A stretch of 37,134 nt of DNA from a virus (lineage: Duplodnaviria; Caudoviricetes): positions 1 to 37,134 of the IMG/VR virus record IMGVR_UViG_3300037423_002034; one strand, written 5' to 3'. Position 1 is the first letter of the stretch. Each line of letters opens with the position of its first letter. Below are positions 435-23,795 of the stretch, piece by piece. The notes beneath the pieces were generated by a model. The model worked only from the letters and a program-made list of their open reading frames with translations. It was not told the DNA's origin and made no database searches. The position numbers and the translations under genes were made by a program.

Positions 435-607
435 GGTTTTCTCAAGTATCGCTGGATTGTGGATGCGCTAACTTCATGGCCCTCGCATGAGAGAATATAC
501 TGAATCATGCGCGAGCTCATGCCGCAGATATTGAGCTGTTCAACGCGCTTGGCCACTCGGCCATTGATACGATAAGAGATAGCTTTACGGCAATGCGGGC
601 ACTTCAA
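431..607 (-). CDS. 58-aa CxxC plus HTH DNA-binding protein (not in ORF track)
   Basis: The TTG start overlaps the upstream TGA. Translates MKCPHCRK...GMSSRMIQYILSCEGHEVSASTIQRYLRKP, an HTH pattern. Confidence 0.65.
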   Translation of the reverse strand: MKCPHCRKAISYRINGRVAKRVEQLNICGMSSRMIQYILSCEGHEVSASTIQRYLRKP

Positions 608-963
608 ACTTTTTCTCCAAGCTTGATTTTAAGTTTCATAAGCTCATAGGCTTCCATGAGCGTCTCCACCTTGTATTGCCTTCTCACCACATCGTTCAAG
701 CCGTAACTGAACTCTTTTTTGACCTGTTCCTTTTTCTCCTGGGAGCGCTCATAGGCATTCTTCACTTCCCAAAAATCGTTCTTTAGCGGAGGGTCCGAGG
801 GTTTTCTTTGCCCAATCCAGTTATCCACAGCTTTAGCCAGATAGGGAGCCGGGATTTTGGAAACGTAGCCACCAACCAGGTTTACCATCTCGCTATCGAA
901 GTTCTTAGCCCCAAAGCGGACCTTAAGCCGCTCAATTTGCCTTAGAAAATCTTCCCTCGTCAT
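604..963 (-). CDS. Putative helicase loader/inhibitor (SPP1 G39P-like N-terminus)
   Basis: MTREDFLRQIERLKVRFG...YLAKAVDNWIG...PPLKNDF resembles G39P-type loaders. The start may be 990 or 963. Confidence 0.45.
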   Translation of the reverse strand: MTREDFLRQIERLKVRFGAKNFDSEMVNLVGGYVSKIPAPYLAKAVDNWIGQRKPSDPPLKNDFWEVKNAYERSQEKKEQVKKEFSYGLNDVVRRQYKVETLMEAYELMKLKIKLGEKV

Positions 964-1042
964 TTGATCAAAAACCCCGAAATCACCCATGTAAGGGCAC
1001 CGATTAGAATCAATGTCTTTATGAGCTGATATGTTTCATCCA

Positions 1043-7506: not shown

Positions 7507-7644
7507 GCTTCACTCTTTCACCCTTGGCCATTAAAGCGCGTATTAGGCTCAAGGCGCAGCGTAAGACTAGATAGTCCCTCTCCATAGGCCTAATGCCCTT
7601 AGCGAAGGCCTGAGACCATTTGACGCGGTATTTGCGCCTCTTCT

Positions 7645-7999: not shown

Positions 8000-8028
8000 A
8001 CTATAACACAGTGCATCTAAGATGGCTA
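8000..8028 (-). promoter_or_regulatory. Sigma-70 early promoter
   Basis: Minus strand TAGCCA-N17-TATAGT with an extended TG. The spacer carries the palindrome CATCT-N-AGATG. Confidence 0.65.
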
Positions 8029-8379
8029 GCTAATTTTGAGCTCTTGACCTTCGGTATAAACCTGAACCCCGCTCCCAAGGAAATCGCGGATTTGGCGCTC
8101 CATTGTGGGGTTTAAAAAGCTGGTTTCCCGATAAAGCCCCGGGATTCGCTTTAAATCTTCCAGAGTCATTCGGCCTTTTAGGGCTCCAAACGAAGTCAGG
8201 TAAGTGCCTCGATCCGAGAATGAGATCATTTTGCACTTATTCCGGCGGCGGTTCAAAAAGAGCACGAAGTCAGTACCCTTCATTGCCGAGATCGCAATCC
8301 TCTTCTGTTTTAAAAACCCTTTTAACCCATCAATCCCGTATCTGAGATCAGCATCAAAGAAAACCTTAGCTACTGCCAT
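8026..8379 (-). CDS. IS66 accessory protein TnpB (Orf2)-like
   Basis: DLRYGIDGL...FVLFLNRRRNKCKMI..DRGTYL matches the IS66 TnpB pattern DMRKGFDGL...FVFxNRRRDRxKxL.WDxxG..L. Confidence 0.75.
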   Translation of the reverse strand: MAVAKVFFDADLRYGIDGLKGFLKQKRIAISAMKGTDFVLFLNRRRNKCKMISFSDRGTYLTSFGALKGRMTLEDLKRIPGLYRETSFLNPTMERQIRDFLGSGVQVYTEGQELKIS

Positions 8380-8660
8380 AATCCCTCCAACACAGCTTGG
8401 AGTTGACTTGAAGTGAAGAGCAATAAAGCTATCTTGGTCTCAACCCTTTTAGGGGGAGATTTATCAGGGACTTGAAACTCTAAGACCTGAGGTAAAGCCT
8501 TAGCCTTCTTGGCCTTGATCTTAGCCCTTTGCCTGAACCCATAGTAGCTAGAGATAGGGATATTAAAATGCTTCACAGCTTCCCCAGTCTTAGCCCCAGT
8601 CTCTTTCTTATAAGCCTCGATCTTTTCTAAAAGTTCTTTCCAATTCGAATTCCTCGCCAT
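8370..8660 (-). CDS. IS66 TnpA-like HTH protein
   Basis: W...IEAY...G.....HFNIPISSYYGFRQR HTH, then a F.V linker and a C-terminal L..VL helix. Overlaps the tnpB-like start, as in IS66. Confidence 0.65.
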   Translation of the reverse strand: MARNSNWKELLEKIEAYKKETGAKTGEAVKHFNIPISSYYGFRQRAKIKAKKAKALPQVLEFQVPDKSPPKRVETKIALLLFTSSQLQAVLEGLWQ

Positions 8661-8680
8661 TCTTCTTTCTCCTTTTGAAA

Positions 8681-8695
8681 GCCTAATTATTAGGC
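8681..8695. promoter_or_regulatory. Inverted repeat, operator candidate
   Basis: GCCTAAT-T-ATTAGGC immediately upstream of the tnpA-like SD. Confidence 0.45.
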
Positions 8696-9154
8696 ATTAA
8701 CTAATTAAACAACCATTCTTTATTCTTTTTTAACTCCCAAGAATTTTTTCCCCTAGATTGGTTCAGAAGTAGGGTAAAAGCCCCCCTACCCCCCAAGAGC
8801 TTTTTCCCCTGAGTTGGCCCGTTATAGCGCAGTTTCTCCACACTCTTTGTCGTAAGCTTAGGCACAAGGCCTAGTCACTGTCGGTTGGTAGGTAGCGTAC
8901 TACGCACGCTGGAGGCCCCCCTGGACTCCCCCTCAATGCCACTGGCTCTTTAACCAGATAAGATGAGGTTTTGGCTAACCGGCTTAAAAACAAGATTGAC
9001 TGTTTGGTTGAGAAGAGAATAACCTTGGGCCAATCTTTGTTTGTTAAGCACCTTCAAAGAGACACCCGGGCCTAGGCGAAGTCAACGTAAAAAGTGATCT
9101 TGCCGAAAGTCCGGGGGCCTTGCCTAAGCCATCAATCCCTGATGCAATCAGCCA

Positions 9155-9395: not shown

Positions 9396-9471
9396 TGGGT
9401 GATAGCTCAGCCGGTAGAGCATTGCACTGTTAATGCAACGGTCGCAGGTTCGATCCCTGCTCACTCAGCCA
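9396..9471 (+). tRNA. tRNA-Asn (GUU)
   Basis: Full cloverleaf: acceptor TGGGTGA/TCACTCA, D arm GCTC/GAGC, anticodon arm TTGCA-CTGTTAA-TGCAA, T loop TTCGATC, G discriminator, encoded CCA. Confidence 0.96.
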
Positions 9472-9490: not shown

Positions 9491-9988
9491 ATGAAGAAAC
9501 CGCAACTGAAACAAGTGAAAACCACAGGTCTTGGTTACCCCAACATCGCTGTCGAGGATATTCCGGAAACCCGAGAAGAGCTTTATAACTCTGACCGCGG
9601 GGAAAAAGAATATTTCAAATCCAAGCAATCCCTGACTGAGCCCGTTCGCCTTCCGATCACTCGCACTGGGGTTGAAACCTTCATTGACATCATCGCTAAA
9701 GTCGCAGGGATCCCGAATGATGATCGAACCAAGGCTCGCATTTATGGCCACATTCACCATTTGGGTGAGACTGTAAACTACACTTCTATCGGTGAGATGG
9801 TGAACGTGGTTCTTCGTGACTGCACGATTGATCTCACCTGGCAGATGGACCAGGAATTGAAAGAGAAAAAGAAATTAGCGGACGAGGCAAAAAAAGCAGC
9901 AGAGACTAAGGTCCAAGAGGCCAAGACAATCACATTGGCAAAGGACGCTGATGCGAAAGCTGAGGGGACCACTGTTCACGGAACTTGA
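9491..9988 (+). CDS. Hypothetical protein
   Basis: SD AGGAG, 165 aa. Confidence 0.75.
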   Translation: MKKPQLKQVKTTGLGYPNIAVEDIPETREELYNSDRGEKEYFKSKQSLTEPVRLPITRTGVETFIDIIAKVAGIPNDDRTKARIYGHIHHLGETVNYTSIGEMVNVVLRDCTIDLTWQMDQELKEKKKLADEAKKAAETKVQEAKTITLAKDADAKAEGTTVHGT

Positions 9989-10364
9989 ACAAGCCTGGTA
10001 TGAGCGCCTAAGACTTGAGGGCTTTGAGGACATTGAAGCAGTTCAAAATCCTGATCGCCCTTTAAGGCAGTGGCACTCGCTTTTGTTTAGAAGAAAGAGC
10101 CAGCAGTACGTTTATCAGAAGTACACCATTGAAGAGTACGTAAGAAAGGCCGATGATTTTGCAAATAACCCGCAATTCCCGCACATCACCCAAACGTTAT
10201 CCAGGCACGGGAACTGCCTTTTCACGGCTCATGGGATTGCTGCGATCTGGGACCTTCACCGCATGGGTAAGAGCGAGCGTGCTATTGCCACCCAAATGGA
10301 TTGCTCAAGATCATGCATAACTTTCCTCTTAAGAAGGCTTAGACGATGGATGGAGCTACTGTAA
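9951..10364 (+). CDS. Transcription regulator with C-terminal sigma-70 region 4-like HTH
   Basis: IWDLHRMGKSERAIATQMDCSRSCITFLLRRLR. Confidence 0.65.
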   Translation: MRKLRGPLFTELEQAWYERLRLEGFEDIEAVQNPDRPLRQWHSLLFRRKSQQYVYQKYTIEEYVRKADDFANNPQFPHITQTLSRHGNCLFTAHGIAAIWDLHRMGKSERAIATQMDCSRSCITFLLRRLRRWMELL

Positions 10365-10804
10365 TCACCCGCCCGTTCATCCCCGAGGAAGACGAGGCCT
10401 TTATTTATGCCACATGGCGAAATTCAGCTTACTTCGGCCAACCCAATCGCCCGAAGGATTCAAAAGACGAGGCCCGGGAGAAGTTTAAGCTTTACACCGC
10501 AAAGATCAGAAAAATCTTGGACCGCGAAGCCACTCAAGTGAAGATTGCCTGCCTTCAAAGCGACCCGACCTTTATCGTGGGATACCTGGTCTCGGAAAAG
10601 AATCACTTGCATTGGGCTTACACCAAAGAAGACTATAGGCAAACAGGCATCGCAAACCTCTTAGGCTTTAATAAGTTTGAAACTTACCCAAGTGAAGTCA
10701 CCAAGATCGGTTTAGAGATCCTTAAAAAGAAGAACAACAAGGAGAATGCACATGGAAGAACAGACTCAGGAACTAAAGAAGAGCAAGAAGCCAAAGATCA
10801 ATGA
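10346..10804 (+). CDS. GNAT-family acetyltransferase
   Basis: IVGYLV strand, then HWAYTKEDYRQTGIANLL (acetyl-CoA binding R/QxxGxA motif). Confidence 0.75.
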   Translation: MDGATVITRPFIPEEDEAFIYATWRNSAYFGQPNRPKDSKDEAREKFKLYTAKIRKILDREATQVKIACLQSDPTFIVGYLVSEKNHLHWAYTKEDYRQTGIANLLGFNKFETYPSEVTKIGLEILKKKNNKENAHGRTDSGTKEEQEAKDQ

Positions 10805-11111
10805 GACCACTTTCGTCTCTACCGAAGATCTCAAAAACTCAGGCGCGCCATTAGCGCTGAATCAAATTGAGTACCTAAAAAACACAGGGATTCCAATCTC
10901 GCTTTGCGTATTCCATCGCACCATCCTCTCAGCCCTCAATGAGCCGGAAACCGCCCTTTACTCGCACGGCACAAGTAAGAAATCCCGCTTAGCCAAGATG
11001 TGGTACACACCAAACGGCTTACTGGTTGAGCAAAAGGATAAGCTAGATAACATCATTCACAAGCTCATCCCTCTTGCTAACGTTTCAGATACAGTCATCA
11101 GCGAAACATAA
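10752..11111 (+). CDS. Hypothetical protein
   Basis: SD AAGGAG before ATG 10752. Confidence 0.65.
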   Translation: MEEQTQELKKSKKPKINETTFVSTEDLKNSGAPLALNQIEYLKNTGIPISLCVFHRTILSALNEPETALYSHGTSKKSRLAKMWYTPNGLLVEQKDKLDNIIHKLIPLANVSDTVISET

Positions 11112-11167: not shown

Positions 11168-11473
11168 ATGGGTAGACCAAAGGGTTCACCTAATAAGGTG
11201 CAAAAGCTTGCGAGAGATATTGCTCAGCAAATGGGTGTGGATCCATTAAAGATCCTTCTTCATTTCGCTGCCGGTGATTGGGAAGGTCTAGGCTACAAGC
11301 AAGGGCACAAGCTCACTCAGTTTGGCGAGCAAGACGTGATCTCACCTGAGCTTAGGCTTTCAGCTGCCCGTGAGGCCGTTAGATACGTTTATCCAGCGCT
11401 TAAGCAGGTTGATCTAGCGAACAAGGATGATGATGGCTTTAGGGTTGAGATTGTGGACTTCGGCGGTAAATGA
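11168..11473 (+). CDS. terS: Terminase small subunit
   Basis: GRPKGSPNK N-terminus, DPL..L, R..AA....YVYP.L. Upstream of terL. Confidence 0.75.
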   Translation: MGRPKGSPNKVQKLARDIAQQMGVDPLKILLHFAAGDWEGLGYKQGHKLTQFGEQDVISPELRLSAAREAVRYVYPALKQVDLANKDDDGFRVEIVDFGGK

Positions 11474-12813
11474 AACTCATCCTTGGCGACTCACTAGAGA
11501 GATTGAAGGATCTGCCGACGTCGACAATCGATGCCATCGTGACTGATCCGCCCTACGGTTGGCGCTTCATGGGCAAGGCTTGGGACGGCGCGGATATTGA
11601 AAAGACAATTGCGTCGAAGATACGCAAAACTCCTGCGCCTGGGCGAAATTCAATGAGTGACAACCGGGCTTTTGCGGCCGGCGAATACAACTTCTCATCG
11701 GAAGGCAATCAATCCTTCATGTTCTGGACGAGCGACTGGGCACGCGAAGCGTTCCGTGTACTCAAGCCTGGCGGGCACATGCTCGTCTTCTGCGGGCCGC
11801 GCACGTATCACGCGATGGCCATGGGCGTGGAGATGGCAGGCTTTGAGATTCGCGATCAGCTGCAGTGGTTATTTGGTTCGGGCTTCCCCAAATCGCTAGA
11901 CGTGAGCAAGGCGATTGATAAAGCGGCGGGCGCTGAGCGTGAAGTGGTTGGCGAAAACCCAAATCATCGGGGCGAGAGTCAAATGCGCAATCCGTTCACA
12001 AAAGCGCTTGGACAGGACGGCTCGCTCACCGCTCCGTCAACCGATGCCGCCAAACAATGGAAAGGCTGGGGCACAGCGCTTAAGCCTGCCAATGAGCCCA
12101 TCGTCCTCGCACGCAAGCCGCTCGAGAAGGGGCTGACAGTCGCGCAGAACGTGCAGAAGTGGGGCACTGGGGCGCTGAACATTGATGGGACGCGGATAGG
12201 ACCTCCACAAAATACGAAAGTGAAGTTCGCATCCAACGCTGATGCCAAGAAAACGATGGGAGCATTTGAAGGGTGGGACGGAACCTATCGTGATCAAACC
12301 CAAGGCCGCTGGCCGGCGAACGTGCTCTTCGACGAGGAAGCTGCGGCGATGCTGGATGAGCAGAGTGGCGTTAGCAAGAATCAGGTGCGTAAGATTAGCG
12401 CGACCGAAGATACTTCGATAAAAAATAAAATCTACGGTAAGGGCTATGTGCGCCAGGCTGGCGGCGCTAACGACTCCGGCGGCGCCTCCCGCTTCTTCTA
12501 TGTGGCGAAGGCGAGCAAGAGCGAGCGCAACGCTGGTTGTGAATTTAATGGGCATCCGACTGTAAAGCCAATCAAGCTCATGGAATACCTCTGCCGCTTG
12601 GTCACGCCACCGGGAGGAATAATTTTGGACCCGTTCATGGGCTCTGGCACCACAGGATGTGCGGCAGCGAAGCTTGGCTATCAGTTCATCGGCATCGAGC
12701 GCGAGCAAGAATACATCGAGATTGCGCGCAAGCGGATTGAGCATTGGAAGAATCAAGCAGGCGAGCGGGAAGACGATGATGGGCAGATACCACTACCACT
12801 GGAGGGTAAGTAA
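11470..12813 (+). CDS. DNA N6-adenine/N4-cytosine methyltransferase (beta class)
   Basis: Catalytic DPPY motif, HPTVKP, SAM-binding DPFMGSGTT motif. Confidence 0.93.
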   Translation: MKLILGDSLERLKDLPTSTIDAIVTDPPYGWRFMGKAWDGADIEKTIASKIRKTPAPGRNSMSDNRAFAAGEYNFSSEGNQSFMFWTSDWAREAFRVLKPGGHMLVFCGPRTYHAMAMGVEMAGFEIRDQLQWLFGSGFPKSLDVSKAIDKAAGAEREVVGENPNHRGESQMRNPFTKALGQDGSLTAPSTDAAKQWKGWGTALKPANEPIVLARKPLEKGLTVAQNVQKWGTGALNIDGTRIGPPQNTKVKFASNADAKKTMGAFEGWDGTYRDQTQGRWPANVLFDEEAAAMLDEQSGVSKNQVRKISATEDTSIKNKIYGKGYVRQAGGANDSGGASRFFYVAKASKSERNAGCEFNGHPTVKPIKLMEYLCRLVTPPGGIILDPFMGSGTTGCAAAKLGYQFIGIEREQEYIEIARKRIEHWKNQAGEREDDDGQIPLPLEGK

Positions 12814-13841
12814 TGCATCATAAGTGCGACATCTTATTCATTCTCAAGAAGAATGAGACTTACGGCTTTAAAACCATGACCAAGAGAAGCTCAGGGCTTT
12901 GGAACTCAACCCGTTTTATCGTTGAGTCCCTTCTCAATCGAAACATCCGAGCTGAGATTGTCGAAGTCATCGATAATAACTGCATTGACCGCGTTGTGAC
13001 TCAAGCTAGGCCTAAGATTGTGATCATCGAGGCTTTATGGGTGGTCCCTGAGAAGTTTGATGTCCTTAAAAGGCTTCACCCCAATGTTAGCTGGTATGTG
13101 CACATGCATTCAGGGCTTGCTTTCCTGGCTCAAGAGGGCATCGCTACTGAATGGCTTAAAGCTTACTCGCACCGGCATATCGGCATCATTGCCAACTCCC
13201 TTGAGACCTATAATGCCTTTCGGATCTTCACTAACGAAGATCACCTGGACCTGCTTTATAACGTCTATATCCCGCACGGGATGACTGCTCCGAAACGTTT
13301 TGATGATCAATGCAATGTAATCGATGTAGGCTGCTTTGGAGCCGTTAGGCCATTAAAGAACCAATTGATTCAGGCCCTCGCTGCTATTGACTATGCAGTC
13401 GAGAATGATTTCTTCCTTTGCTTCCACATCAACGGAACCCGCAAAGAGGTGGGTGGGGAGCCGGTTTACAAGAACATTAAGAAGCTTTTTGATGGTCTGC
13501 GCTTTGCTGAGCTCATTGAACACCCCTGGTATGAGCCGGAAGACTTTCACAGTCTTCTTCGCGGCATGATCGACATCAGCCTTCAGGTATCTTTGTCCGA
13601 AACCTTTAACGTAGTCACAGCGGATGCCCTAACCTGCGGTGTCCCGGTCGTGGTAAGTGACCAGGTGAGCTGGACAAGCAAATATAGCCAGGCCGATACA
13701 GATAGTATCCTTGATATAACCAAGAAGATGGCGAAAGCTTTGGCAAAGCCATGCCTAACGAAGGTGAATCAGGGAAAGCTCATTGATTTCTCTAACGATG
13801 CGCAAGATATGTGGGCAAGCTTTGTGCGGAGACATGTCTGA
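12813..13841 (+). CDS. GT-B (GT4-like) glycosyltransferase
   Basis: FGAVRPLKN and SLSETFNVVTADALTCGVPVVVS (E-x7-E/D motif). Confidence 0.82.
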   Translation: MHHKCDILFILKKNETYGFKTMTKRSSGLWNSTRFIVESLLNRNIRAEIVEVIDNNCIDRVVTQARPKIVIIEALWVVPEKFDVLKRLHPNVSWYVHMHSGLAFLAQEGIATEWLKAYSHRHIGIIANSLETYNAFRIFTNEDHLDLLYNVYIPHGMTAPKRFDDQCNVIDVGCFGAVRPLKNQLIQALAAIDYAVENDFFLCFHINGTRKEVGGEPVYKNIKKLFDGLRFAELIEHPWYEPEDFHSLLRGMIDISLQVSLSETFNVVTADALTCGVPVVVSDQVSWTSKYSQADTDSILDITKKMAKALAKPCLTKVNQGKLIDFSNDAQDMWASFVRRHV

Positions 13842-16330: not shown

Positions 16331-16648
16331 GTGACCAATCTTGAGCGCAAAGAAGCCTTAATTAAATGTCTTCGTCTTCAGGTTGATCTTAACGACTGGA
16401 AACAGGTTCGAAAGATAGCCAAGGACTTGCGTAAGCTTGAGCAGCAAGTGCATCAGGTTCGGGCACCCATCAAGGACGAGGGAAAAGCTCAAGCTCCAAG
16501 CACGGAAGCTTTGCCCGACGTGATGCCGCGAGACGTTGAGATTCCGCACAACATCCAAGAGGTAAGAAACCTTTTGCGCATGAAGGATGAGGATCTCATC
16601 GAAAAGCTTTTCCCCATTGAAACTCCTGAACAAGAGGCGGGCGCATAA
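16331..16648 (+). CDS. Hypothetical protein
   Basis: GTG start, TAATG coupling to portal. Confidence 0.65.
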   Translation: MTNLERKEALIKCLRLQVDLNDWKQVRKIAKDLRKLEQQVHQVRAPIKDEGKAQAPSTEALPDVMPRDVEIPHNIQEVRNLLRMKDEDLIEKLFPIETPEQEAGA

Positions 16649-18555
16649 TGCCGACGAAAGAAGTCATTGAGGCTCAACGCCCCACAAAAGAAATCATTGT
16701 AAAGACTAAGAGCAAGCCCAGAGCCAGTGAGACTGGGCAATCCTATAAATGGTGGCTTGCGCAGTCGGATTCAGATCTTATTGACCAGCTTTTACAGACC
16801 ACTGACTATTTAACCAAGATTCACCAGGTCAGGATCAGACAAGCGTCGATCTTTACGAGGTTACTCAGTGGAAAGCCGCTATATAATTACTTGGCTAATG
16901 TTGGCACTCTGGATAATAGTCAGCAGCTTCCTATTGGTCGCCCTACTGCGAATGTTTGCTACTCTTGCACTGATACTCTGGTTTCCCGCTTAACCCAAAA
17001 CCGCCCGAAGCCAACTTTTCTCACCAACGGCGCTCATTACAAACAGCGAAGACTAGCTGAGGAATATAACGATTTCACCTATGGTGAGTTCTTTAGACTT
17101 AAGGCCTGGGCCAATACGGCCCTAGCCCTGAGAGATTCTTGTGCGATCGGAGATGGTTTTTTAAAGGTTTATCCACTCGACAACAAAGTGGCGATGGACC
17201 GAGTCCTTTCCACTGAGCTTTTGACCGACTACAATGACTCTTACTACGGCAAGCCGCGGATGTTGATCCACAAGAAGATGGTGGATCGCAATGTGGCGAT
17301 GGGCATGTTTCAAAAGAGTGAAGCAGCCCTTTTAAAGGCTCAGCCGGGTAAGATCGATAACACTCCGCTATCTACCGACACTGCTTCAGATCAGATTATC
17401 CTTGCTGAGGGCTGGAGACTTCCTTCGTTTGAGGGAGCAAAAGACGGCCGGCATGTGATTGTGTGCTCTGCTGGTGTTTTGCTTGATGAGTCGTGGGAAA
17501 GAGATCATTTCCCGTTTGCCAGGGTTGGTTATAACCCCAACATCGTTGGCTACTTCTCGCAGAGCCTTTGCGAGATCCTCATGCCGACGCAAATGGAGAT
17601 CTATAAGCTTCTTATCGTGGCATCACAAGCCATTGAGCTTATGGGTGTGCCCCGCATCTATATCGATGAGCTTTCGGCCATCACAGAAACCGCCTTTAAC
17701 AACAACATCGGAACGATCATCAAGGGCCGAGGACAAGCTCCTCAGTTCTTAAATGCCACGAGCAATGCTCCTGAGATCTATGAGTGGATCAAGTGGCTAA
17801 TTGAAAACGCTTATCAGATGAGTGGTGTATCCGCCATGTCTGCGGCCGCACAAATACCTGCAGGACTTAAATCTGGCGAAGCTCAGCGTGTCTTTTTATC
17901 CACACAAGATGCCAGGTTCAATGCATTAGAACGCAGATTCTATGAGATGCATGATGAGCTTGCTTATCTGATTATGGAAACGGCAGCTGAGATTGCTGAA
18001 GAGACTGGTAAGTATTCGACAGTCTACCCAGGCCAAGATGGCATTAAGAAAGTTGATCTTCCGAAGGCCAAGCTTCTTAAAAACACCTACGTGATTCAAA
18101 GCTATCAGGAATCGGCCCTTGTTAAAGATCCAGCCGGGCGCCAGGCTCAGCTTTCCGAGATGCTTGCGGCTGGTGAGATCACTCTTCGTGAATTCCGAAG
18201 ACAGTCAAACTACCCCGACCTTGATCAAGACAATCAGCTCGCCAATGCCCAGGAAGAGCGCATCCTTCATGACCTGGATGCGATCATCGATGATGGCGAG
18301 TTCAACCGTCCTGATCCGTTCGTCCTAAGCCCTGATGATTTGGCGACCACGCTGACCGTGCAGTACATCAATAAGTATGCAGTGACTGATCTTGAAGAAG
18401 AAAAGATGCAGATGCTGCGCGATTACTTCACTGAGATTCAAAACCTCAAAGGTCAGGCAGCACCTCCGCCACCGGCTCAGGCTCCCGCACAGTCTAATGT
18501 GCCTGTTCAGCCGCCGGCCCCATCCATTTCACCAACGAGTAATGTCCAAGTCTAA
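16648..18555 (+). CDS. Portal protein
   Basis: 635 aa between terL and scaffold. LVSRL..NRPKP, GDGFLKV, FPFA, SGEA features and a Pro/Gln tail. Confidence 0.87.
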   Translation: MPTKEVIEAQRPTKEIIVKTKSKPRASETGQSYKWWLAQSDSDLIDQLLQTTDYLTKIHQVRIRQASIFTRLLSGKPLYNYLANVGTLDNSQQLPIGRPTANVCYSCTDTLVSRLTQNRPKPTFLTNGAHYKQRRLAEEYNDFTYGEFFRLKAWANTALALRDSCAIGDGFLKVYPLDNKVAMDRVLSTELLTDYNDSYYGKPRMLIHKKMVDRNVAMGMFQKSEAALLKAQPGKIDNTPLSTDTASDQIILAEGWRLPSFEGAKDGRHVIVCSAGVLLDESWERDHFPFARVGYNPNIVGYFSQSLCEILMPTQMEIYKLLIVASQAIELMGVPRIYIDELSAITETAFNNNIGTIIKGRGQAPQFLNATSNAPEIYEWIKWLIENAYQMSGVSAMSAAAQIPAGLKSGEAQRVFLSTQDARFNALERRFYEMHDELAYLIMETAAEIAEETGKYSTVYPGQDGIKKVDLPKAKLLKNTYVIQSYQESALVKDPAGRQAQLSEMLAAGEITLREFRRQSNYPDLDQDNQLANAQEERILHDLDAIIDDGEFNRPDPFVLSPDDLATTLTVQYINKYAVTDLEEEKMQMLRDYFTEIQNLKGQAAPPPPAQAPAQSNVPVQPPAPSISPTSNVQV

Positions 18556-19483: not shown

Positions 19484-20821
19484 ATGGGAACTCCCGCAAA
19501 TCCCGCAATTGCTTATTCGAACTCCACGGATAACATTGCCGTTTTAAAAGAACTCTATAGTGATGACGCCTGGGTAATGAAGGACCTTGTCTTTGACAAG
19601 AACCCGCTCCTTGCTCTGGTGCCGAAAGATGAGACCGAAATGGGCATGGGCGGTAAGTCCTTCCCGGTTCCGGTCATGTACGATACTGGTGCCGGTCGTT
19701 CTGCCGCTTTGGGCACTGCCCAGACCTATCAGACCGCTCCGCAAACGGTTGAATTCCAATGTACCCGCGTATCGAACTACTCGGTTGCTACCCTGACGAA
19801 CGATTTCTTGCGTGCATCGGCTGCCAATATCGGCGCCTTCATGCCCGCAGCGGAACTGAACGTTAAGGCTGCCTTCCGTAATATCTCGAATGATTTGGCG
19901 CATGACCTTTTCGGTGATGGCTCGGGTATTCGTGGAACTTACGGCTTGGGCTCTGGTTCGATCTCTGGCGGCGTGATCACGCTCGATAACCTCGGCATGG
20001 TTTACCAGTTCGCAGTCGGTATGGCCCTGGTGAGCTTCTCGGTCTCTGGCTCGACTCCAACTCAGTCTACTGGTGCGGCTATTGGCTATGTGATCGCAGT
20101 CGACACTGGTCTTGGCACCGTGACTGTTTCGGCAAGCCAAGGTGGCGCCGCTGGGAATCCGAGCTCATGGTCTAGCTCGTTCCCGTATCTGGCTCAGGCT
20201 GGCGACGTGAACTTTATCGCTAACGGCTTAAACTCGGCGAACATGCTTAAGATCGCAGGTCTTGGTGCGTGGATTCCGAGTACTGCTCCCGGCGGATCGG
20301 ATAACTTCTTTGGTGTGAACCGCTCGGTTTCGCCGACCAAGCTTGCCGGTCTTCGCTATGTTGGTGGTCAGCAAGAATCGATTCAAGACGCCTTGATCGA
20401 TGCTGTAAACCAATTGGCAGCTCAGAGCTCGGAAGCCGGTGACCCGGATTACATCTTCATGAACCCGGTCTCTTACCAGACCCTTGTGAAGCAGCTAACC
20501 AGCCAGGCGAATTATGTAAACGTGAAGCATGATGAGATCGACATTAGCTTTAAGGCACTTGTGTTGCCGACGGCTAATGGTGAGATCGCAATCTTGCAAG
20601 ACCGCAACTGCCCGGCTCAAACTGCCTACATTCTGACCCTAAAGACTTGGAAGCTTCGTAGCTTGGGCAAAGTGCCCCAGTTCCTGACCTTCCCTGGCTT
20701 TTATGATCAGTTGGGCTTTCCGGTGCCCGGATCGGATGCAGTGGAACTGCGCGTAGGTTACTATGCTCAGTTTACTTGCAACGCACCCGGCGCTAACGCT
20801 GTCGTCCCGCTGTCTCAGTAA
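19484..20821 (+). CDS. Major capsid protein (HK97 fold, with insertion domain)
   Basis: Position, LKELY..., NPLLALV, LFGDG.G, followed by a terminator. Confidence 0.87.
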   Translation: MGTPANPAIAYSNSTDNIAVLKELYSDDAWVMKDLVFDKNPLLALVPKDETEMGMGGKSFPVPVMYDTGAGRSAALGTAQTYQTAPQTVEFQCTRVSNYSVATLTNDFLRASAANIGAFMPAAELNVKAAFRNISNDLAHDLFGDGSGIRGTYGLGSGSISGGVITLDNLGMVYQFAVGMALVSFSVSGSTPTQSTGAAIGYVIAVDTGLGTVTVSASQGGAAGNPSSWSSSFPYLAQAGDVNFIANGLNSANMLKIAGLGAWIPSTAPGGSDNFFGVNRSVSPTKLAGLRYVGGQQESIQDALIDAVNQLAAQSSEAGDPDYIFMNPVSYQTLVKQLTSQANYVNVKHDEIDISFKALVLPTANGEIAILQDRNCPAQTAYILTLKTWKLRSLGKVPQFLTFPGFYDQLGFPVPGSDAVELRVGYYAQFTCNAPGANAVVPLSQ

Positions 20822-22145: not shown

Positions 22146-23306
22146 ATGGCAGTGAACGGACTTACTTCAATCCCGCAAAATGTCGTCTTATCGACCGGCA
22201 ATGGGCAAAACTACCTCACATGGGATGAAGTCTTAGGGGCAACGGGCTACACGGTCCAGCGCTCAACTACAGGCTTAGTTGGAAGCTTCGCAGATCTAGC
22301 GACAACAGTTGCTGTAAATAACTATCTCGATACGACTTGTGTTTCTGGTATTCAGTACTGGTATCAAGTTGCTTCGAACAATGCCTCAGGCACGAGTGAT
22401 TTTGCCAATATCGGTACGAATGAGCTTCCGCTAACCATTACGCCATGTCTTCCGGGCCAGATTAATCTTGGCTATCTCAGGTACATGTCGAAGCTTCGGG
22501 CAGATAAGCTTTTCTCTGAGTTTTTGACCGTTGATGAGTGGAACTTCAATATCAATCAGAGCATGAAGCGGCTTTATGATCTCTTGATCACGAAATTTGG
22601 TGACAAGTATTTCTTGGCCCCACCGCTTCAGATTCCAACGGCACAGTTTACGGTTTCACAAGGCATGGCGTTTGTTCAGCTGCCTGAGGGCTCACTTTAT
22701 AGCAAGGCTCCAGCTTTTTATAAGGTGGCAGGAGTTGATGTTTCGGTGAATCCGGGAAATGGGCAATGGTTTTCTTTACCCCGCTTTAACTGGATCGATC
22801 GCAATCGTTATTCGACCCTTCAGCTATCGGGAACGGTGCAAAGCATTTACGGACTAGCTTATTGCGAGTTCGGAAACAACCTTTGGTTCATCCCTCAGCC
22901 ACAAGCTTCGCTTTATGTTCAGCTCTGGTATGTGCCGGTCGTAACCGAGATGCTTAAAGACACGGACATGATGCCTTTTTCGATTTCCGGTTGGTCTGAG
23001 CTTGTGATTGTGGATGCTGCAATCAAGGCTTTGGTGAAGGAAGAGTCCTACGAGCAGGCTGGCGCTATGATCAATGAGCGAACCGAGCTTATTGCAAGGA
23101 TTCAAGAAACGGCAGCGAACCGAGATGTCGGTCAGCCTAATACTGTAAGCAACACTCGGGCTCGCGTGGGTGATGTCAACTTCGGCTCTTTCGGTGGCTT
23201 TGGAACAAGCGGTTTCGGAGGCGGTTTTGGTTGGGGCGGCGGCATAAGCCTTGAACTTATGGCTGTGATATCAATTCTGGCTACCATTATTGGAATGGTG
23301 CTTTAG
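22146..23306 (+). CDS. Head-tail adaptor protein with N-terminal fibronectin type III domain
   Basis: FN3 signature P.NV....LTW..V.GATGYTVQRS...YLD......YWYQV, then the adaptor-like L...S..RAD......EW...IN...RLYDLL. Confidence 0.72.
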   Translation: MAVNGLTSIPQNVVLSTGNGQNYLTWDEVLGATGYTVQRSTTGLVGSFADLATTVAVNNYLDTTCVSGIQYWYQVASNNASGTSDFANIGTNELPLTITPCLPGQINLGYLRYMSKLRADKLFSEFLTVDEWNFNINQSMKRLYDLLITKFGDKYFLAPPLQIPTAQFTVSQGMAFVQLPEGSLYSKAPAFYKVAGVDVSVNPGNGQWFSLPRFNWIDRNRYSTLQLSGTVQSIYGLAYCEFGNNLWFIPQPQASLYVQLWYVPVVTEMLKDTDMMPFSISGWSELVIVDAAIKALVKEESYEQAGAMINERTELIARIQETAANRDVGQPNTVSNTRARVGDVNFGSFGGFGTSGFGGGFGWGGGISLELMAVISILATIIGMVL

Positions 23307-23747
23307 ATGCTTCCACGATTCGCCTCTAACAATTCGGCTGACGTGCGATTGGCTAAGCCCATATTTGCTGGCGATTTTTTGTTGAGAAATCCCATCAGCA
23401 TATTCTTTTCGAATATCGCAGATGATGCTGGCGCGAAGTTTTGCCGAGAAATTTGTCTCTCCCGGTCCGGATGGTTGGCGTCCCTTGTTTATTGTATCCA
23501 AGTTATTGTCTCTCGCGCTTCCAAGGAAAAGATGTTCCGGCCTTACGCAGCTCGGATTGTCGCATTTGTGACAAACAAAAAGTCCGCTTGGAATTTTACC
23601 AAAATGAAGGTTCCATGCAAATCGGTGGGAGCGAACCTGTCTTCTTGGACTTTTGAGTCTAAAAAGGCCGTAGCCATCTCGATCTTTGCCGGCGATCCAA
23701 ATCCAACAGGACTCGGTTTTTCGAACTTTCCCCCAAAACCTTTGCAT
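23271..23747 (-). CDS. Free-standing HNH homing endonuclease with C-terminal HTH
   Basis: CWIW...GYG...HR.AW....VCHKCDNPSCVRPEHL..G...N, then the HTH ISQQKIASKYGLSQSHVSRI. Confidence 0.93.
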   Translation of the reverse strand: MQRFWGKVRKTESCWIWIAGKDRDGYGLFRLKSPRRQVRSHRFAWNLHFGKIPSGLFVCHKCDNPSCVRPEHLFLGSARDNNLDTINKGRQPSGPGETNFSAKLRASIICDIRKEYADGISQQKIASKYGLSQSHVSRIVRGESWKHLKHHSNNGSQN

Positions 23748-23753
23748 GAAAGG

Positions 23754-23782
23754 GTTTTATGGTTTTTGGCTTCGGTCGTCAA
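23754..23782 (-). promoter_or_regulatory. Sigma-70 promoter of the HNH gene (likely leaderless mRNA)
   Basis: TTGACG-N17-TAAAAC with ATG 6 nt downstream and no SD. Confidence 0.5.
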
Positions 23783-23795
23783 GGGGGGAGGCTAG

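Follow-up and report, generated by a model that had tools for sequence, protein, structure and literature searches.

An old, optional gene pair of uncultured phages related to the accessory genes tnpA and tnpB of IS66

IS66 is a common family of insertion sequences in which all three genes are needed for transposition, and the roles of its accessory genes, above all that of TnpB, are poorly understood. According to the published description, these elements carry the genes tnpABC between border repeats, and tnpC is thought to encode the transposase (PMC6778807). A search of the full-text literature, with subscription journals mostly outside its reach, returned no mechanistic paper on the IS66 accessory genes, and none, judging by titles and the starts of abstracts, that deals with phages carrying a tnpA/tnpB pair without the transposase. 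The locus described here carries such a pair. It lies in a window of 37,134 nucleotides that represents one complete phage record (37 kb) with direct terminal repeats. The leftward strand of this genome bears the early and DNA-metabolism genes and the rightward strand the terminase, portal, capsid and tail genes. About 490 non-coding bases separate the rightward genes from a leftward operon, at whose head stand the two genes that we call A and B. The features of the locus, in window coordinates, are as follows.

8000..8028, minus strand: sigma-70-like consensus site with an extended -10, just after B; contains the palindrome at 8014-8024
8026..8379, minus strand: gene B, 117 aa, intact ORF; belongs to a family of phage proteins with distant homology to IS66 TnpB (PF05717)
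8384..8388, minus strand: Shine-Dalgarno-like GGAGG for B, 4 nt before B and inside the end of A
8370..8660, minus strand: gene A, encoding a TnpA-like protein of 96 aa with an N-terminal HTH, a basic linker and a short C-terminal strand-helix
8669..8673, minus strand: Shine-Dalgarno-like AGGAG, 8 nt before the start of A, seen in the sequence
8661..9154, no strand: non-coding divergence region, containing a 31-nt imperfect direct repeat
8681..8695, no strand: perfect palindrome with 7-bp arms, candidate operator for A
8731-8761 and 8787-8817: the two copies of the 31-nt imperfect direct repeat (77%), inside the non-coding divergence region

An earlier note on this DNA, made from its letters alone, had taken the two overlapping ORFs for an orphan IS66 tnpA/tnpB-like pair on account of their order, sizes and motifs, and had credited tnpA with a strong Shine-Dalgarno sequence. 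These descriptions hold: both ORFs are intact, A is the first gene of the leftward (early) operon and is preceded by AGGAG, and B carries the motifs DLRYGIDGL and FLNRRRNKCK. The two genes overlap by 10 nt, and from this arrangement we infer that they are translationally coupled. Gene B can be tied to IS66 TnpB by several routes. It matches the Pfam TnpB_IS66 model (PF05717) with E 8.4e-6 and 26.1 bits, below the curated cut-off of 26.6, and the NCBIfam IS66_TnpB model (NF033819) with E 5.4e-5 and 23.1 bits, below the cut-off of 50; both matches span residues 10-62 only. A by itself has no significant match in Pfam, PHROGs or NCBIfam, so that the HMM comparison suggested by the note is positive, if sub-threshold, for B and negative for A alone. 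A profile search with B across 1.84 billion representatives yielded 125 proteins; their lengths are 38-169 aa, and none is a long fusion. Together with the close homologues, and with two fragments left out, these form a 130-row alignment, in which 89 proteins match PF05717 at E <= 0.01. Among the homologues are seven full-length proteins at 62-73% identity, on contigs of 1.3 to 43.6 kb; the family has no match among cultured phages. When the family was compared profile to profile with 12 true IS66 TnpB proteins, residues 9-71 aligned (hhalign 97.2%, E 3e-11, 59 columns), while the C-terminal third of B did not.

The B family and IS66 TnpB have in common an N-terminal D-L-R-x-G-x-x-G-L motif and a beta-hairpin. 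However, the identity of B to true IS66 TnpB is only 31-42% over about 50-70 residues, and the W-x-x-x-G-F, K-R-L-x-x-G-x-F and F-x-W-P motifs of IS66 TnpB, which the IS66 alignment displays as W-E-G-D-G-F, K-R-L-E-x-G-x-F and F-x-W-P, are each found in none of the 130 B proteins. N43 of B is nearly invariant; at this place the IS66 proteins in the comparison read C-G or C-N. The conserved residues of B (D11, R13, G18, N43, K50, R/K65 and R70) form no evident catalytic set, and no recognisable nuclease or toxin motif was found in it. All 130 proteins carry a net positive charge, with a median pI of 9.9. Clamp-binding motifs are present in some IS66 TnpB or TnpC proteins (PMC3971601); a beta-clamp motif in B was considered and rejected, the strict type QL[SD]LF being absent from the 130 B proteins. 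In two quick trees, the second comprising 45 of the 130 family rows, 8 proteins of known context and 7 from IS66, the B family forms one clade apart from IS66 TnpB (SH-aLRT 99-100), and the branch that joins the two is 1.6-2.3 changes per column long; both trees are unrooted and therefore give no direction. An AlphaFold2 model based on the 130-row alignment (pLDDT 80) shows a strand, a helix, three strands and two helices. The ESM Atlas likewise points B to the TnpB family, by its features as well as by structure prediction (TM 0.53, model against model). The better model, in a wide VIA-align search, reached its best Z of 5.0 with SH2 domains (rmsd 3.5, 70 aligned residues), which is at background level. 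Foldseek against the PDB with a weak first model gave nothing clear, BFVD gave no match with E <= 0.001, and there was no sequence relative in the PDB.

A direct homologue search with window A found none, and a profile search recovered A itself and four proteins only, three of which lie on contigs equal in length to known carriers. As a family, the A proteins align with IS66 TnpA over the HTH (hhalign 86%, E 5e-6), whereas the A protein of the window itself reaches only 6 bits with an IS66 TnpA profile. A proteins from six loci match HTH_Tnp_1 with E values of 5e-5 to 0.014, all under the cut-off, and an HTH of this type is common to other IS families as well. The A proteins of the carriers have in common the N-terminal HTH, the basic linker and the C-terminal strand-helix, and the nine tested have a pI of 9.8-10.9. 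A family HMM built from window A and eight others picked, in a held-out test, exactly the six upstream genes of later loci (E 5e-9 to 3e-3) and nothing beyond them up to E 30. A predicted complex between B and the last 45 residues of A (score 0.00, mark 0.32) speaks neither way.

The pair is not confined to this genome. Three motif scans of a virus-only collection, with HMM confirmation, placed a B gene in 17 distinct other viral records, belonging to 10 lineages (7 of 9, 4 of 4 and 6 of 6 loci); L080 and L086 were dropped from the first scan as chance matches, and five loci of another scan were re-finds. A basic A-type gene of 85-125 aa abuts B upstream in 16 of these 17 records and in 9 of the 10 lineages, so that the tnpA-tnpB order with overlap or abutment is seen in the window and in all but one of the others, with junctions that range from a 14-nt overlap to a 14-nt gap. 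The exception is L093, where B has no adjacent A and an HTH_Tnp_1 gene lies about 3.6 kb upstream. The B proteins are 26-49% identical among the eight lineages compared and 18-34% identical to that of the window. The virion module of the window is shared by three of eight carrier records and unmatched in five (one of them judged on 12 kb only). Numerous unrelated uncultured phages, of at least 10 lineages, have this pair; the earlier note had proposed a survey for tnpAB without tnpC. Scans for the window's own 30-member B sub-clade found 0 loci, and the window is the only genomic context for it. A scan of 185,579 prokaryote genomes with a motif held by only 11 of the 130 B members confirmed no family member; its single 28-residue match was not upheld by the B family HMM. 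A metagenome scan for B gave 19 loci, all of ordinary IS66 type. Two observations on the carriers may be recorded here. In L093 (1965-2429 and 6004-6537) the B family gene has a long C-terminal tail, and the HTH_Tnp_1 gene, on the same strand, is above the Pfam cut-off. Some 2.5 kb beyond the pair, L115 (8442-8942) and L117 (8687-9214) have a short tyrosine recombinase (166-175 aa) that comprises just the catalytic domain.

Among the nearer relatives of the window the pair is missing. The window capsid (19484-20821) and portal (16648-18555) have 0 matches among 50,697 GenBank phage records and its terminase has distant matches only; in a viral collection the capsid has 38 relatives at 60-92% identity, which represent a large uncultured phage group. 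In the 25 of these records that were searched (the shorter ones being left out, and 3 of the 25 being at least 90% complete), no B was found and two positive controls were detected. The equivalent site, read in 12 of these records, holds other genes. The A/B module is optional.

Canonical IS66 elements (e.g., L114) likewise have an HTH gene followed by an overlapping TnpB_IS66-related gene of similar sizes, but the phage pair, present in one copy in the window's genome, lies in a phage early region with neither TnpC nor terminal repeats in sight. The absence of both, noted from the letters, is borne out. DDE_Tnp_IS66 (PF03050) was found nowhere in the complete genome (the control was positive in 6 of 14 genomes), and it is likewise absent from the other carriers (0 of 11 and 0 of 6 records), i.e., from all 18 records, 10 of which (9 of the 17 others) are at least 90% complete. 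Ordinary IS66-type loci, by comparison, have a 417-558-aa ORF straight after tnpB in 9 of 19 cases. No inverted-repeat pair lies between the flanks of the window locus, and no 11-of-12 match between the 300 nt upstream and the 200 nt downstream of the pair was seen in any of the 10 loci tested. The module is related to the IS66 accessory genes but is not an IS66 element.

The dN/dS of B is 0.19 in the close pair L081/82 and 0.05 in L083/84, with few changes in either, which amounts to purifying selection. Among L115, L117 and L119, B retains 64-74% identity with saturated synonymous sites and A 39-41%; dN/dS for A is 0.26-0.42 where estimable in these three, and in L081/82 its value of 0.62, on nine changes only, is uninformative. 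GC3 and codon use of A and B are like those of the neighbouring genes. The gene order, the sizes and the HMM matches could in principle be those of a decaying IS66 remnant that has recently lost tnpC. Against this, B is far from true IS66 TnpB and much closer to its seven full-length homologues, it falls in a separate clade, its synonymous sites have turned over while the protein was kept, the codon usage is that of the neighbours, and no carrier has TnpC; moreover, no near-identical active IS66 was found. A remnant is accordingly an extremely improbable explanation, and a recent IS66 deletion is already largely refuted. Since B is under purifying selection, we are dealing with an old phage module, and the description of a domesticated two-gene module related to IS66 tnpA/tnpB holds. 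Pairing, lack of TnpC, a separate clade and selection on B together establish a real, old and repeatedly found phage module. Alternatively, the pair might act on IS66 biology itself, by poisoning the transposition of host IS66 into the phage or by borrowing a host TnpC in trans. That both IS66 accessory genes have homologues here, arranged in the same order and overlapping similarly, would be in keeping with this; however, the want of IS-like ends at the 10 loci, the loss of all three IS66 motifs throughout the B alignment and the long branch to IS66 TnpB make it quite improbable.

What such a module does in the early phase is less plain. The explanation that we favor, although tentatively and at somewhat less than even chances, is that A and B form a putative coupled, two-part DNA-binding regulator of early transcription within an old, optional phage module homologous to IS66 tnpA/tnpB. 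A and B would be translated together and cooperate. The HTH of A would read a short operator, its rapid evolution being that of a specificity protein, and the strongly basic, better conserved B would add a contact to the DNA backbone or to host machinery. The A-B complex may then repress or redirect nearby promoters. At divergent operon heads such as that of the window, its own promoter region would be one target, here possibly through the 8681-8695 palindrome, and the balance of early versus late or packaging genes might also come under its control. This reading draws on the A-type gene that abuts B in nearly all records, the HTH scores of A proteins in six loci, the basic character of both proteins, the divergent heads and the conserved spacer motifs of L115, L117 and L119. 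Arc of IS605-family transposons offers a precedent for an IS accessory protein that is a repressor (bioRxiv 10.64898/2026.09.24.754181). Arc resembles the proposed regulator in being a small IS accessory protein that regulates transcription, but it is a ribbon-helix-helix protein of an unrelated IS family that acts inside the element, and the comparison is an analogy only.

The non-coding sequences around the pair bear on this in different ways. The upstream palindrome, GCCTAAT-T-ATTAGGC, is exact as the note had it, with P about 0.03 when the upstream 100 nt are shuffled. The genome holds eight palindromes of its class, and this one is absent upstream of A from the nine other loci checked. 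Its half-sites recur at 7542-7548 and 7588-7594, 39 nt apart and in reverse order, about 450 bp downstream of B, which may be chance. The palindrome at 8014-8024 has 5-bp arms and P about 0.08. The early promoter said to lie where tnpC should begin does not stand out, one consensus hit being at chance level against 2.0 +/- 1.5 expected. In L115, L117 and L119 the pair points away from the terminase genes, and the short spacer between them retains short conserved motifs, including an 8-bp palindrome, even though the synonymous sites of B are saturated. Counting against the regulator are the mid-operon placement of the pair, without an evident upstream promoter or palindrome, in five of the 10 paired lineages, the unpaired B of L093, the lack of an operator motif common to all lineages, and the low score of window A on the TnpA profile. 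A basic surface also fits recombination, RNA binding or host-protein binding equally well.

The note had further placed the pair at a divergence point where cI and cro would be expected. The location itself is right for the window, but a divergent operon head is seen in only five of the 10 paired lineages (the window, L085, L095/96, L115-119 and L120). In a lambda-type switch the first gene at a divergent boundary of early and late genes encodes an HTH protein and its leader is overlapped by a palindrome, and to this extent the locus is similar; in contrast, it has no repressor on the opposing strand, A has no XRE or S24 peptidase match, there is no integrase, and a second gene of unrelated fold looks obligate. 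That the pair is a lysis-lysogeny switch replacing cI and cro might be argued from the divergent heads of the window and four other lineages, from the recombinases of some carriers and from the absence of any free-standing XRE gene in the window or in G037-G042. Yet the window contains neither a tyrosine recombinase (PF00589) nor a serine recombinase (PF00239), hence no integrase or resolvase; among 12 records, one has the former and two the latter. G029 and G030, the carriers in which a large serine recombinase occurs, possess a divergent XRE pair of their own in addition, half of the paired lineages keep the genes mid-operon, capsid relatives do without them, and the prokaryote scan, within the 11 of 130 members that its motif covers, confirmed no family member. 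A lifestyle-switch role is very improbable. The window's only HTH_3 hit was considered as a cI and rejected, being the tail of an HNH endonuclease.

A different DNA-directed role deserves more weight. The pair could be a DNA-organizing accessory for phage recombination or replication, acting by bending, synapsis or origin opening, as it maybe does for TnpC in IS66. It sits among early genes of DNA metabolism: recombination genes adjoin it in L082, L087 and L095, and in L083/84 a large serine recombinase follows after 240 bp. The window also lacks a phrog_270-type initiator, which in the related G014 heads the same operon. However, G030 has both the pair and the initiator, no recombinase or helicase is a constant neighbour across the lineages, and the clamp motif of some IS66 TnpB proteins is wanting throughout B; we regard the proposal as unlikely, albeit a serious minority candidate. 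The missing initiator is itself uninformative, because seven of the eight capsid relatives tested have neither that initiator family nor the pair. The separate XRE pair and the initiator of G029/G030 further indicate that the pair is a general substitute neither for cI/cro nor for the initiator. As a separate observation, window 604-990 has a homologue in G014 (L063 13588-14629) that directly follows the replication initiator.

A third possibility is that B is a host-directed early effector, for anti-defence, host takeover or toxicity, with A as its HTH repressor or antitoxin. An HTH gene followed by an effector is an order that fits type II toxin-antitoxin pairs. The pair is also small, coupled, early and patchy, as its absence from the 25 capsid relatives illustrates, and B is more conserved than A. 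Nevertheless, the window's proteins have no PADLOC hit, B shows no nuclease or toxin motif, and L093 has B without an adjacent A. Moreover, the same order and coupling are found in IS66 and so need no new explanation. On balance an effector of this kind is rather unlikely.

Returning to the module as a whole, the conservation of a transposase-free form in at least 10 phage lineages suggests that these proteins have an activity independent of TnpC and of IS ends. A bolder and, in our estimation, unlikely proposition is that TnpA and TnpB together make up a self-sufficient machine that acts on DNA in a broad group of uncultured phages and that IS66 is a composite of a DDE transposase with this module. 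If this were true, the phage pair would reveal the job of IS66 TnpB, and TnpB would represent a new class of small effector that binds DNA or host machinery. The phages supply a minimal system of two proteins that exists in many natural variants, and the activity of TnpA/TnpB might be found in it. They also serve as a warning that the label "IS66 TnpB" in a phage genome need not mark a transposon.

Several further features of the source phage and its relatives may be noted. The divergence region 8661..9154 has no Rfam match and folds within the shuffle range (z -1.4), a tRNA being the sole Rfam match of the window. A tRNA-Asn(GTT) lies by the divergence at 9396-9471, and a tRNA-Asn near the corresponding region is also present in three of 12 capsid relatives and in the carriers L081, L082 and L093. 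The stretch 11470-13841 encodes an N6/N4 DNA methyltransferase and a group 1 glycosyltransferase, flanked by a likely small terminase gene and the large terminase. Within the virion-gene block, on the opposite strand (23271-23747, minus), is a free-standing HNH endonuclease with a C-terminal HTH; the plus-strand ORF at 23307-23795 is probably a shadow of this overlapping ORF. Finally, rightward small genes of 165, 137, 152 and 121 aa occupy 9491-11111, one with a weak C-terminal HTH and one weakly GNAT-like. This block, which precedes the terminase in most related phages too, is a candidate late-transcription control unit.
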